DNA of 15,944 nucleotides, from the IMG/VR virus record IMGVR_UViG_2690316156_000009; one strand, 5' to 3'. The DNA comes from a virus (lineage: Duplodnaviria; Heunggongvirae; Uroviricota; Caudoviricetes). Positions within the stretch are counted from its first letter, which is position 1. Each line of letters begins with the position of its first letter. Made by a program: the position numbers. This document shows, piece by piece, positions 12,001-15,000 of this stretch.

Positions 12001-15000
12001 CACGGCGGCAGTATCAATATTCTGACCTCTCACCGCCCTTCACCGCTGGCAAAGGGAAACCCGTCGCACAGCAATCTTGTCCAGATCGAAAAGGTTTAAG
12101 GAGTAGCCCATGACCACACAATATGGATTTTTTATCGATTCCAGCCGCTGTACTGGCTGTAAAACCTGCGAACTGGCGTGCAAAGATTTTAAAGTTGGTT
12201 ACGTATCGTTTAAAATCAATTAGATAGCCCGTCATTTCTGCGCTCACACGTCCCAACATTGAAAAACATGCAAAGCTTTGTAAGCCGATGCAAAGCTTTG
12301 TGTGTCTCACTTTTGTCCCAATACCAATCCGAATCCACCCTTTGTCATCATTGAGAAATGGCAAGGAAGAAAAGGAAGAAAAGGAAGAAAAGGATGTTAC
12401 TGCACGATTTGACAAATCCGCCAGAGCTATCGCATACTGACCGCACTACAACGTCAGCGGTCAACCGCACCCGATAGCTTTGCGGCTTTTTTATGCCTGT
12501 TTACAGGTATCGCCATATCAATGGCGGGTCGAGAGAGCCTAATACAATACCCTTTCGGGAAATACGCTCCGCCGTCTGACGCGGTAGTTGAAGCCCGCCC
12601 CCCCACTAAGGTGGCAGTCAATACTAAAACGTCAGGAGTCATAATTATGACTAATCAACTCATTCCCGTTTTCGATGGAACCATCAACAACGAACCAGTT
12701 TTACTTTGCAATGCTCGCAATCTGCACGCTTTTCTTGGTATTGGTAAAATGTTTGCTCACTGGATCAAGGACAGGCTGGGTGAATATGGATTCGTTGAAA
12801 ATCAAGATTTTGTGATTGCTTGCCAAAATTGGCAAGCAAAAGGTAGAGGCGGTCACAACCGCAAGGAATACCACCTCACCCTCGACACAGCCAAAGAGCT
12901 TGCGATGGTTGACGACTGCGTCCAATACTGACTATACTCCGCGCCGAGGCCTCGAAAACCTCCCAAAAGCGGATTAAACCAACCCCGTCAGTGTTGGATT
13001 TTTTATGCCTGTTATTCAGTGATAGCACAGTGTGCGGTCACATCCCCGATCAATGTCGGGAGGGCGACGAATACAACACCCGCAAGGGGAATAAGTCCGC
13101 GGTATCTTTTGGGCCGTTTCGAGCCTCCCGGCACCACATCTTGTGGTGGCATTTCTCGAAAAAAGCCAAAGGAGGTCATCATGACCACTCAACTCATCCC
13201 TGTGTTTGAAGGTACAATCTCAAATGAACCTACGCTTCTGGTGAACGCGCGTGATTTGCATGGATTTTTAGAGGTAGGTAAAGATTTTTCTAACTGGATA
13301 CGGGCCAGGCTAAACGAGTATGGATTCGTAGAAAATTTAGACTACATTCTATTTTCGCCAAATTTGGCGAAAACTCCAGGCCGCCGCCGCAAGGATTACC
13401 ACCTCACCCTCGACACAGCCAAAGAGCTTGCGATGGTTGAACGTAACGAAAAAGGCCGCCAGATACGCCGCTACTTCATCGAGTGCGAAAAGAAACTTCG
13501 CAACATTCAGCCAGTACAAACTGAGCAGCAATTCACAACCGAGGAAATCATCCTCCTCTGCTACATGCAACTCTGGATGGAAAAAGCACAACAACTCAGT
13601 AAGCAGCTATACCCCGTCATGAGAGAACTGAATTCTGATTACTACGGGAAACTGTTTGATCTGGCCTACGAGACTCGTCATATAACCAACCGGACTCGCG
13701 ACACATTGCTCCGCGAAGCAGCAAAACTTGATCCCGCCAACTATATGGTGCACAGGGCCAGAAGTATGCTGGCGCAACTAAGAGCAAGACAATTTGAATT
13801 CTGAAACCAAAGGAGCTTCGGCTCCTTTTTTCATGCCTGAAGGAAAGGAAAATGGCAGATATCATCGACAATGCCGCTGAAATCGAAGAATTGCAGCGCA
13901 ATCTCTCCCTGCAAAAATACAAATCCGATAGTAATGCCCCATCTGCTACTCATTGTTGCGAGTGTGGCGATCCGATAGATGAGCGGCGACGCCAGGCTGT
14001 TCGCGGATGCCGAACTTGCGCCAGTTGCCAGCAGGATATTGAACTTATCAACAAACAGAGAGGTGTGAAGTGAGCATAGACACCACTATAACGATCGATA
14101 CGGCCCTCAACACAGGTCTGGCGCTTCTTGGTTATTTTTACATTATGTTCTGCGCCGGGCGGTGGCTATCGCTGTTGTTACTGAAAAAATGGAATAAATG
14201 CCGTAAGCAGGATCAACGCCAGAAGGCAATGAATGCGTTTTCCGAAGCCTTCGGGATTGACAGCATGGAGCCAGGAGGTCCAGCTCGCGTAATTAGCAGA
14301 GGTGACGTTGTAATTCTTGTATACCGGAGCGAAGAGAAAAATGAGCGAGATTAACTATCAGGTACTGCGTGAAAAGGCAGAAAAAGCAACGCGTGGTGAG
14401 TGGTCGCTCGAATATGGAGAGAACCGATTTGATGGTGATGATGCACTAATTCATCGCGAGGCTGCTGGATATATTCCCATTTGCAGAATTGAAGGAGCAC
14501 ATCCTGAAAGCGGTTTCGATGAAGATTTCCAAATGGAACAGCAGGCCAATGCTGAATTCATCGCCGCAGCCAATCCGGCTACCGTGCTGGCACTGCTGAA
14601 TGAACGGGAAAGAAACCAGCAATACATCAAACGCCGCGACCAAGAGAACGAGGATATTGCGCTTACTGTTGGGAAGCTGAGAGTTGAGCTTGAGGAGACA
14701 AAATCAAAACTCAACGAGCAGCGTGAGTATTACGAAGGTGTTATCTCGGATGGAAGTAAGCGCATAGCAGAACTGGAGGAGCGGGAAATAAAACCAGCCA
14801 AAGGCGAAGTTCTTGTCGTTGTATCTGGTTTTACTGGTTGCGGGAAAAGCGCCATTGCCGGGGAAATAGAAATCGCGATGAAGGCTATTGGTGTACCGGT
14901 TCAGTGGACTAATGGCGATGCGGAAAAGCGCATGACAGGAGCTGACTGGCTGACAGCGATTGAGATGTACAAACCAACAGTGCGCATCGTGGAAGTTAAT

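Follow-up and report, generated by a model that had tools for sequence, protein, structure and literature searches.

Host locus and prophage end

The window, i.e., the whole analysed stretch of 15,944 nucleotides from IMG/VR virus record IMGVR_UViG_2690316156_000009, carries ynfF of E. coli and the first 28 codons of ynfG. The 5' stub of ynfG (12111–12194) is truncated by a prophage: identity to K-12 ynfG runs through ...GATTTTAAAG and the sequences diverge after it, and the stub is annotated in RefSeq as a partial 4Fe-4S protein (TOE17 and O104:H4). The first base of the prophage, which is lambdoid and POCJ13-like, is 12195, directly 3' of the 7-bp core TTTAAAG (12188–12194). All features described below lie on the plus strand, apart from this core and the 9-bp tandem expansion, to which no strand is assigned. 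The same ynfG target is used by the Stx1 phages of Shigella (POCJ13 and 75/02) and by a prophage of O104:H4 E. coli.

The core forms the common overlap, being shared without change by attB, attP, and the two prophage junctions, as in lambda/P22-type sites. In attB, GATTTTAAAG is followed by ATCTTGG; at the junction in the window, GATTTTAAAG is joined to TTGGTTACG, and at the junction on the int side, CAACAACTTTAAAG is joined to ATCTTGG. One contig (L019) holds the intact attP, which reads CAACAACTTTAAAGTTGGTTACG. On this contig, the gene of a 387-aa Int with a Phage_integrase domain (Pfam) ends 55 bp before the core, placing a tyrosine integrase beside the site in the phage form, and in O104:H4 and POCJ13 int is located at the opposite prophage end. 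Both int and xis thus lie at the far prophage end, outside the window. Int is 71% identical to P22 Int, and Xis is close to P22 Xis and carries HTH_17 (Pfam).

The int-distal arm of the attachment site

By homology, the segment from 12195 to approximately 12322 is assigned to an attachment site of the P22 family, of which it forms the P arm, the arm distal to int (attR in the lambda nomenclature). Between 12229 and 12322, 79 of 94 positions (84%) are identical to the P arm of P22 attP, and the identity to BIS08P22 is 86%; the core-proximal 34 bp of the arm are only about 50% identical. A putative IHF-like site, AATCAATTAGATA (12214–12226), which we infer from its sequence only, is preceded by an A/T tract, shows one mismatch to WATCAANNNNTTR as judged by eye, and aligns with AGTCAACAACATA of P22 attP. 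A second one-mismatch match to WATCAANNNNTTR, likewise found by eye, is situated after the int stop.

The first integrase arm-type site of the P arm, GTCCCA (12250–12255), is contained in the block GCGCTCACACGTCCCA (12240–12255), which more than 120 IMG/VR contigs retain. Further along the arm, GTCTCA (12304–12309) and GTCCCA (12315–12320) form an arm-type pair 11 bp apart (12304–12320), and the same pair with the same spacing is present in P22 (GTCCCATTTTTGTCCCA) and in the int-side arm (GTCCCAAATTTGTCCCA). Arm-type repeats distinct from the core therefore exist on both arms, with two GTCCCA copies in the int-side arm and three (one of them degenerate) in the P arm within the window. Their offsets are equal in both arms of P22, BIS08P22, and the present phage, three phages with different cores, and in Eho59 GTCCCA is replaced by TGACAC in both arms. 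Every Int homologue whose flanks are readable (72–100% identical) retains the int-side GTCCCA pair. A search for attP through Int homologues returned 80 loci, most of them on IMG/VR contigs that either terminate at the int stop or contain the prophage junction with a tRNA gene, and gained only one new intact attP.

Paired repeats and the excisionase

The palindrome CAAAGCTTTG occurs exactly twice in the 15.9-kb window (12271–12280 and 12291–12300), each time within the exact 14-mer ATGCAAAGCTTTGT (repeat 1, 12268–12281; repeat 2, 12288–12301), the two starts being separated by 20 bp. The expected number of exact 14-mers recurring within 30 bp is, by our calculation, about 0.002 per 16 kb. Both copies are homologous to ATGCAAAGCCTTGC of P22 attP, where the array consists of ATGCAAAGCC TTGCAAACCG ATGCAAAG, direct repeats phased at 10 bp. 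In the present phage the middle repeat is degenerate (TTGTAAG), and each strong unit therefore reads as a perfect 10-bp palindrome.

The repeats follow the type of excisionase. All nine intact attP sites with an Xis helix of the form ISRPTAxNWI(R/K)(T/S)GRLQATRK, i.e., the P22-type helix-turn-helix, contain TG(C/T)AA(A/G) repeats; where the Xis helix differs (L123 and APSE-1), another sequence replaces them and GTCCCA is retained, and other P-arm classes possess different 10-bp phased repeats in the same place. Recombination directionality factors, the class that includes Xis, typically bind direct repeats one helical turn apart (PMC7498355). The correspondence between the ATGCAAAGCTTTGT repeats and the excisionase type among relatives makes binding by Xis the most likely role of the repeats, an assignment drawn from their position and from covariation with only three contrasting Xis types. 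Two features speak against it: a perfect 10-bp palindrome is unusual, Xis sites being normally asymmetric, and a third ATGCAAAG sits in the int-side arm of the present phage.

Under this assignment, the ATGCAAAGCTTTGT copies would represent the strong members of an array of direct repeats, phased at 10 bp, between the GTCCCA sites, to which a P22-type Xis of the HTH_17 fold may bind cooperatively, bending the DNA. The bent array would then help Int on the neighbouring arm sites to assemble the excisive complex, with Int and Xis encoded approximately 60 kb away at the other prophage end and adjoining the P arm in the circular phage. Mimicry of the core-type site, suggested by the resemblance of the repeat to TGCAAAG on the host side of the core, is unsupported because P22 keeps the repeats despite a quite different core. 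A terminator scan also called both palindromes together (12266–12305); this call was rejected, as it reflects the dyad symmetry of the repeats and a genuine U-run is lacking.

Spacer, promoter, and hairpin

The stretch from 12323 to approximately 12400 appears to be a spacer. It contains a strain-specific tandem expansion of a 9-bp unit (12363–12394; Tandem Repeats Finder: period 9, 3.6 copies, 100% matches), in which three GGAAGAAAA units span 12365–12391. A single unit is present in POCJ13, in O104:H4, in 24 of the 26 IMG/VR contigs reaching the site, and in 81 of the 82 complete E. coli genomes with this arm; the 216-bp form is confined to TOE17 among the complete E. coli genomes, the others listed having 198 bp. 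Slippage from one to three copies would account for the array, and the expansion is thus explained without any function.

Homology to phages integrating elsewhere begins at approximately 12400–12406, which seems to mark the start of a mobile antirepressor module driven by a sigma-70 promoter of its own. The promoter (12409–12438) consists of TTGACA (12409–12414), an 18-nt spacer, and CATACT (12433–12438), matches 10 of 12 consensus positions in the promoter scan, and has a predicted start near A12445. Over the 900-bp region, the scan called four promoter-like sites, whereas shuffled sequences gave 1.1 ± 0.9. Both hexamers and a 17–18-bp spacing are retained in all 48 unique variants, which contain 19 spacer sequences; these variants were gathered with an exact 22-mer, so that the set is biased towards close relatives. 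The promoter, which is directed at the ant genes, is very probably real. It occurs without the palindromes in approximately 196 further E. coli genomes, and in TL-2011c and phi191 it lies inside the early operon.

A long hairpin with a U6 run (12418–12491; dG −30 kcal/mol, z −4.3) encloses the −10 hexamer. A transcript initiated at the promoter lacks the 5' arm of this hairpin and folds no better than shuffles, and the 5' arm is lost in 6 of the 19 spacer variants with the hexamers kept. A candidate LexA box, TACTGCACGATTTGACAAAT, at the promoter was rejected, as it has CAA in place of CAG and its upstream half is not kept in other contexts.

The ant module and its RNA address sites

Downstream of the promoter lie two ant genes. 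The first, ant1 (12647–12931), is a 94-aa ORF with the AntA domain only (Pfam, E 4e-25) and is a pseudogene in the TOE17 annotation; the second, ant2 (13181–13804), encodes a full-length antirepressor with AntA and P22_AR_C (Pfam). Each is preceded by a control unit. In the first unit, an upstream copy of an 8-nt address, alpha (AACGTCAG, 12450–12457), which aligns with b1 of the P1 c4 leader, is followed by a structured RNA (12523–12607) resembling sRNA-Xcc1 (Rfam RF02221, E 5e-8), whose 51.5 bits fall 1.5 bits short of the gathering score of 53. The loop of its last hairpin contains beta (CTGACG, 12575–12580), complementary to alpha and to a downstream address copy of the same sequence, gamma (AACGTCAG, 12628–12637). 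Gamma overlaps the Shine-Dalgarno GGAG, in a position like that of P1 b2, which overlaps the icd ribosome-binding site.

The second unit (12963–13175) repeats this order with another address: alpha2 (CCAAAAG, 12963–12969), a second sRNA-Xcc1 copy (13055–13140) scoring 73.4 bits and thus above the 53-bit gathering score, beta2 (CTTTTGG, 13106–13112), and gamma2 (CCAAAGG, 13166–13172), which runs into the Shine-Dalgarno GGAGG (13171–13175). sRNA-Xcc1 is a stable 88-nt RNA in Xanthomonas (PMC2996969), and it has so far been reported as a trans-acting integron sRNA of that genus.

Across relatives, alpha, beta, and gamma co-vary in 16 address classes. Column-based pair counting is unusable here because unrelated addresses align in shifting registers, and it was replaced by a comparison of complementarity within and between classes. 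Alpha and beta are perfectly complementary over 6–9 nt in all 16 classes, against a cross-class mean of 3.9 and a maximum of 6, and gamma equals alpha in 15 of the 16. The loop is thus complementary to both an upstream site and a ribosome-binding site, with covariation, as in c4/CI-type RNAs. The Rfam models C4, c4-a1b1, and isrK, all of which match P1, gave no match at E ≤ 1 over 12000–13200 and none at E ≤ 10 in 12400–12530 or 12510–13160. Other Rfam matches (mir-19 at 12264–12307, sR52, MIR2871, and c-di-GMP-I) are far under their gathering scores and are taken as chance.

The transcript would accordingly carry, in order, alpha, the sRNA-Xcc1-like RNA with its beta loop, and gamma fused to the ant Shine-Dalgarno. 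By analogy with P1 c4 (sites b1, b', and b2) and Gifsy-1 IsrK, pairing of beta with gamma would block ant translation, and alpha, whether in cis or on a short terminated transcript, would be a rival partner for beta.

Interpretation of the region

The preliminary description had reported two palindrome copies 20 bp apart, three tandem 9-mers, and a TTGACA/CATACT promoter pointing at the ant-like genes, all of which are confirmed at the positions given above. It had also stated that no regulator gene is visible beside them and that the cognate factor would act from elsewhere; this holds within the window, since int and xis, the cognate genes, are located at the opposite end of the prophage. Its reading of these elements, in which the palindromes are operators, or the 9-mers iterons, controlling the promoter through a trans-acting repressor, is largely refuted and now appears very improbable. 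The closeness of palindromes, 9-mers, and promoter on one strand and a dyad symmetry suited to a dimeric repressor agree with it, but the repeats are situated 108–141 bp upstream of the −35 hexamer, in the P22-attP-like segment, with integrase arm sites between. Moreover, palindromes and promoter assort independently: in P22 and BIS08P22, ATGCAAAGCTTTGT-type repeats are not followed by an ant module, and the promoter occurs without the palindromes in the genomes and phages named above, while the iteron reading conflicts with the single 9-mer of nearly all relatives. It is also quite unlikely that the repeats, positioned as they are within the arm, are bound by the N-terminal arm-binding domain of Int or by a host factor (Fis or IHF), for which the extra ATGCAAAG in the int-side arm and the TGCAAAG beside the core on the host side could be cited. 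The motif common to both arms and co-varying between them is GTCCCA/TGACAC rather than GCAAAG, which is absent from the int-side arm of P22 and BIS08P22; furthermore, a host-factor site would not vary with the Xis type, and the repeats do not match the IHF consensus.

Two further readings concern the sequence between the arm and the ant genes. A 50-aa protein (12288–12440, MQSF...KEEKEEKEEK...), in which the 9-mers would be in-frame KEE repeats, deserves almost no credence: an ATG is present and the 9-bp unit preserves the frame, but the ORF has no Shine-Dalgarno before its ATG and no Pfam match, and it overlaps DNA conserved as attachment-arm sites in P22, whose sequence does not preserve the frame. 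The hairpin at 12418–12491 could instead be a terminator or retroregulator of int transcripts in the circular phage, like lambda sib/tI, and in the prophage an insulator against read-through from host ynfEFG, with the hexamers incidental to its stem. In the phage form, int transcription runs to the core and then into this strand, and the stable hairpin with its U6 run is located approximately 230–300 bp beyond the core, a position comparable to that of lambda sib. Nevertheless, this explanation is unlikely, as the hairpin moves with the ant module rather than with int and att (it is mid-operon in TL-2011c and away from att in other phages), its 5' arm is lost in 6 of the 19 spacer variants although these retain the hexamers, and no comparable element follows the P arm of P22. 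As a secondary function, insulation by the hairpin would not conflict with the main model.

The main model, which we consider probable, is that the 170 bp represent the junction of two independent phage modules: a P22-type attachment arm with Xis and Int sites and a mobile ant module with its own sigma-70 promoter and RNA-level control, separated by a spacer in which a 9-bp unit has expanded by slippage. The module boundaries, the homology to P22 attP, and the covariation of the addresses are observed directly; what we infer is the pairing of proteins with sites and, by analogy, the direction in which the RNA regulation works. The ant module seems to be under conserved control at the RNA level and not through the palindromes.

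Beyond this, the promoter may head an addressable RNA switch that is new for the RNA family. On this proposal, for and against which we give equal weight, sRNA-Xcc1-type RNAs would be c4/CI-like co-transcribed antisense RNAs that gate the translation of AntA/ORF6N-type antirepressors, with an address of 6–9 nt, present behind the promoter, in the RNA loop, and at the Shine-Dalgarno, diversified into at least 16 specificity classes on a near-constant scaffold. Such an address pattern would suggest selection for class-specific (hetero-immune) antirepressor control among lambdoid and Stx prophages sharing a cell, possibly with cross-talk of antirepressor expression between co-resident prophages. 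Antirepressors can trigger the induction of lambdoid prophages, including Stx phages; the ant gene of Phi24B shows weak expression in lysogens and contributes to induction (PMC3064807).

The significance is mainly that of a correction, in which the palindromes become part of the recombination system of a ynfG-targeting integrase of the P22 family, and the resulting site map of the attachment arm is directly testable. The finding of a regulatory region is itself ordinary, and the RNA switch is the by-product of greater weight. If the proposal is true, the promoter and its three-site, class-specific RNA switch would provide a new handle on the waking of prophages and on the talk between co-resident prophages, as well as a function for the Rfam family sRNA-Xcc1.

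Comparison with known systems

P22 attP reportedly assembles an intasome of Int, Xis, and IHF. The present arm shares with it the order and spacing of a putative H-like site, GTCCCA, two to three TGCAAA repeats, and a GTCCCA pair, as well as the GTCCCA pair in the 3' end of int. However, the core here is the 7-bp TTTAAAG in a protein gene, ynfG, whereas in P22 the identity segment is long and lies within a tRNA gene; the present phage has a degenerate middle repeat; and its arm abuts an ant module, which P22 does not possess at that place.

The P arm of lambda attP has the order P1-H1-P2-X1-X1.5-X2/F-H2, and excision is directed by Xis. As in lambda, the proposed excisionase repeats are on one arm only, beside an Int arm-type site and opposite int, and the overlap region is 7 bp. 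Part of this description of lambda follows PMC7498355. Unlike in lambda, Xis is of the HTH_17 type (116–123 aa); there is no sequence similarity, and the number and orientation of the arm sites differ.

The ant module is comparable to the immI operon, which P1 and P7 are reported to possess and in which the annotation of P1 (NC_005856) gives the order promoter, a1/b1, c4 RNA, a2/b2, icd, and ant. The order of the parts is alike, and the regulated gene is an antirepressor in both. Alpha aligns with b1, before a common GCGGnCAnCCGCA...TTGCGG-U-run leader element; the complementary sequence is in the hairpin loop of an RNA of approximately 87 nt with an outer stem and two hairpins; and the downstream copy overlaps the Shine-Dalgarno. 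In contrast to P1, the RNA here matches Rfam sRNA-Xcc1 rather than C4, one address is recognised instead of two, and there is neither an icd-like leader ORF nor a recognised C1 operator.

Further parallels are offered by IsrK of Gifsy-1, whose mechanism is described in PMC4825925, and by the CI RNA of P4 with its seqA/seqC. In the present phage, the isrK model has no match in the window, and folding gives a weak terminator for transcripts that start at the promoter. By analogy with both systems, one promoter would give rise to a short terminated RNA and a translationally inactive read-through mRNA, in which an upstream sequence and a downstream one would compete for an internal partner.

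The junction between the host gene and the attachment arm

The region at 12268–12438 is a junction of three elements: an attachment arm of the P22 family, a repeat expansion of trivial origin, and a promoter heading an antirepressor module under probable c4-like RNA control. The two palindromes within 14-mers (12268–12281 and 12288–12301), the tandem 9-mers (12365–12391), and the TTGACA-18-CATACT promoter element (12409–12438) are all real and lie where the preliminary description placed them. That description is confirmed as an observation, and its interpretation is partly supported. 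On the + strand, the host gene ynfF (9673–12099) is followed by the first 28 codons of ynfG (12111–12194); both are identical to E. coli K-12 as far as GATTTTAAAG, and divergence from the K-12 ynfF/ynfG sequence begins right after it. Beginning at 12195, the sequence aligns with the terminus of Shigella phage POCJ13 (90% identity), with 75/02 Stx, and with PhiR5_2; 82 complete E. coli genomes, O104:H4 among them, also match. The opposite prophage end in O104:H4, immediately after the integrase gene, has GGTGAGCAACAACTTTAAAG and ATCTTGGCC on the two sides of the boundary, and its comparison with the present junction defines the common core TTTAAAG (12188–12194).

An undivided attP, CAACAACTTTAAAGTTGGTTACG, is present on one IMG/VR contig (L019), where xis and int lie just upstream and are transcribed toward it. 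The region lies 74–244 bp into the attP arm opposite int, and the arm holding it is the P arm (attR in the lambda nomenclature). In the prophage form, the whole phage genome is situated between this arm and int/xis. No regulator gene is visible beside the region because both genes are at the far prophage end, in agreement with the earlier suggestion that the cognate factor is encoded elsewhere. At the int-side junction of O104:H4 (L007, 4740–4800), an in-frame GTGGTGAGCAACAAC from the phage end precedes what is left of the ynfG coding sequence, where a 184-aa 'reductase B subunit' is annotated in RefSeq; a YnfG shortened at its N-terminus may remain beside the prophage and could still be expressed.

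Arm-type sites and putative Xis sites

The integrase is 71% identical to Int of a P22 derivative, and the Xis possesses an HTH_17 fold with a DNA-binding half nearly identical to that of P22 Xis. The arm itself is homologous, since the P22 sequence downstream of int aligns with window 12229–12322 (identity 84% with P22 and 86% with BIS08P22); identity is only ~50% in the 34 bp nearest the core, which follow the differing integration targets. Three phages with three different cores have a common layout relative to the int stop codon, with GTCCCA at -50 and -39 in the int-side arm and at +115, GCAAAG at +135 and +155, and GTC(C/T)CA at +169 and +180. GTCCCA is common to both arms, is retained beside every Int homologue with a readable flank, and is replaced by TGACAC on both arms of the more distant phage Eho59; these are the properties of integrase arm-type sites. 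The att arm is a further example of a well-known kind of site.

Unlike GTCCCA, the GCAAAG repeats are limited to the P arm in the three-phage layout. The P22 array, ATGCAAAGCC TTGCAAACCG ATGCAAAG, consists of three direct repeats separated by one helical turn. Decay of the middle unit to TTGTAAG in this phage leaves each strong unit reading, by happenstance, as a perfect CAAAGCTTTG palindrome. A third ATGCAAAG, specific to this phage, is found in the int-side arm immediately ahead of the int stop (L019 ~12190–12197), and the host side of the core (window 12178–12187) reads GTGCAAAGAT; both could reflect either chance or additional protein contacts.

More than 120 P arms, gathered via the invariant block GCGCTCACACGTCCCA, form several classes in the segment between the arm-type sites, each composed of 10-bp phased repeats of differing sequence. 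Another of these classes, for example, reads ATACCAATCC ATGCCAATAG, and the repeat classes (loci L121–L231) represent a natural collection of candidate excisionase specificities. In all nine intact attP sites with TG(C/T)AA(A/G) repeats, the Xis region is ISRPTAxNWI(R/K)(T/S)GRLQATRK (9/9). In locus L123 and APSE-1, the GTCCCA sites are kept, the Xis helix is different, and the repeats are replaced. The repeat sequence tracks the Xis type. Recombination directionality factors, including Xis, typically bind direct repeats one turn apart and bend DNA, with P22 Xis cited among such cases (PMC7498355). From their arm position, their covariation with the Xis type, and this phased-repeat habit, the two 14-mers are assigned as putative Xis sites.

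The 9-mer expansion and the ant-module promoter

The site reads GGCAAGGAAGAAAAGGATG, with one 9-mer unit, in POCJ13, in O104:H4, and in 24 of the 26 IMG/VR contigs with this arm that extend to it (contig L023 ends short of it and is outside the 26 scored), which argues against the iteron-like sites proposed previously. Among the IMG/VR contigs and genomes compared, three units occur only here, in strain TOE17, and in contig L027. In the listed matches to complete E. coli genomes, a full-length hit at 99.5% is seen for TOE17 only, and the other full-length hits span 198 bp rather than 216 bp. The 9-mers are a slippage expansion seeded by AAGGA...AAGGA rather than a conserved repeat array.

Homology to phages integrating elsewhere (TL-2011c, phi191, and many O157 prophages) begins at ~12400–12406, and ~196 further E. 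coli genomes contain only the part from there on. In TL-2011c, the same element is located between a DUF551 gene and the ant genes, in the early leftward operon and far from att. The promoter is accordingly part of a mobile ant module rather than of the att arm. All 94 instances compared, corresponding to 48 unique sequences, contain TTGAC(A/T), 17–18 bp, and then CATACT, GATACT, TATGCT, TAAGCT, or CATAGT, and the spacer takes 19 forms, some mutually unrelated. Hexamers and spacing are kept while the spacers vary, the conservation pattern that a working sigma-70 promoter would show. Of the operator-controlled ant promoter postulated earlier, the promoter is very probably real, and the palindromes are not supported as its operators. 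In lysogens of Phi24B, a related phage, expression of ant is weak, and the gene promotes efficient induction (PMC3064807).

RNA folding predicts a long hairpin at 12418–12485 (-30 kcal/mol, z -4.3), which includes the -10 hexamer and is followed by U6. Transcripts started from the promoter do not contain the 5' arm of the hairpin and fold with no special stability. The hairpin could halt transcripts arriving from int in the phage form or from ynfEFG in the prophage form while sparing those of the module; this possible role is considered only secondary, because the 5' arm is missing in 6 of the 19 spacer variants.

A proposed RNA switch downstream of the promoter

Two sRNA-Xcc1 (RF02221) elements, at 12523–12607 and 13055–13140, score 51.5 and 73.4 bits, respectively, in Rfam (gathering score 53), and each forms part of the 5' leader of a gene encoding an AntA domain. 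The same RNA family was reported upstream of an ORF6N gene in an APSE phage paper, and sRNA-Xcc1 may act as a leader RNA linked in cis to antirepressor-type genes and not as an independent sRNA.

Across the ant-module variants compared, a short address covaries at three positions on a nearly constant scaffold. Alpha, AACGTCAG (12450–12457), is located 12–19 nt past the -10 hexamer, and gamma (12628–12635) repeats alpha immediately before and into the ant1 Shine–Dalgarno. Beta, CTGACG (12575–12580), occupies the loop of the last hairpin in the Xcc1-like element and is complementary to both. The data set contains 16 distinct addresses, such as CTTCAAAG/CTTTGAAG, CAAATAAG/CTTATTTG, and ATGTAACG/CGTTACAT, and the covarying loci include L035, L009, L021, L250, and L269. 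Alpha:beta complementarity extends over 6–9 nt in 16/16 classes; cross-class combinations average 3.9 and reach at most 6, a value attained in only 1.7% of pairs. Gamma equals alpha in 15/16. The second unit of the window (sRNA-Xcc1 copy 2 and ant2) is built of the same parts. Candidate roles of alpha are a cis decoy, a trans activator, or a processing aid.

Lysogens differ in the poly-C tract at 12601–12607, which belongs to the 3' strand or tail of Xcc1-like copy 1, with 7 C here, 8 in locus L010, 9 in O104:H4, and CCACCCC in POCJ13. ant1 (12647–12931) is a 94-aa ORF with an AntA domain only, annotated as a pseudogene in TOE17, and the full antirepressor is ant2 (13181–13804).

Comparison with P1 c4, IsrK, and P4

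The proposed RNA switch, located just beyond 12268–12438, is a variation on a known kind; in the literature searched, no description of such a switch was found for sRNA-Xcc1. The P1 immI operon has the same layout as this ant module, its record annotating the promoter P1c4, putative sites a1 and b1, the 77-nt c4 RNA, sites a2 and b2 ("repression of icd ant translation"), icd, and ant1/ant2. In P1, b' is in the c4 hairpin loop and b2 overlaps the Shine–Dalgarno, and the alpha/beta/gamma arrangement is that of b1/b'/b2, with alpha aligned with b1 ahead of a common GCGGnCAnCCGCA...TTGCGG-U-run element. At 87 nt each, the Rfam consensus structures for C4 and sRNA-Xcc1 share an outer stem, a pair of hairpins, a second loop that varies, and a tail resembling CCACC. 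For these two families (C4 at locus L294, 48337–48422, and sRNA-Xcc1 at window 13055–13140), the models agree in length and topology and have a similar 3' tail but are not grouped in a single clan. The Rfam models C4, c4-a1b1, and isrK have no match in the window; by analogy, the module would work like c4 but lies outside that family. In Gifsy-1, the short terminated RNA IsrK activates translation of the read-through mRNA from the same promoter, and the P4 CI RNA with seqA/seqC provides another precedent (PMC4825925).
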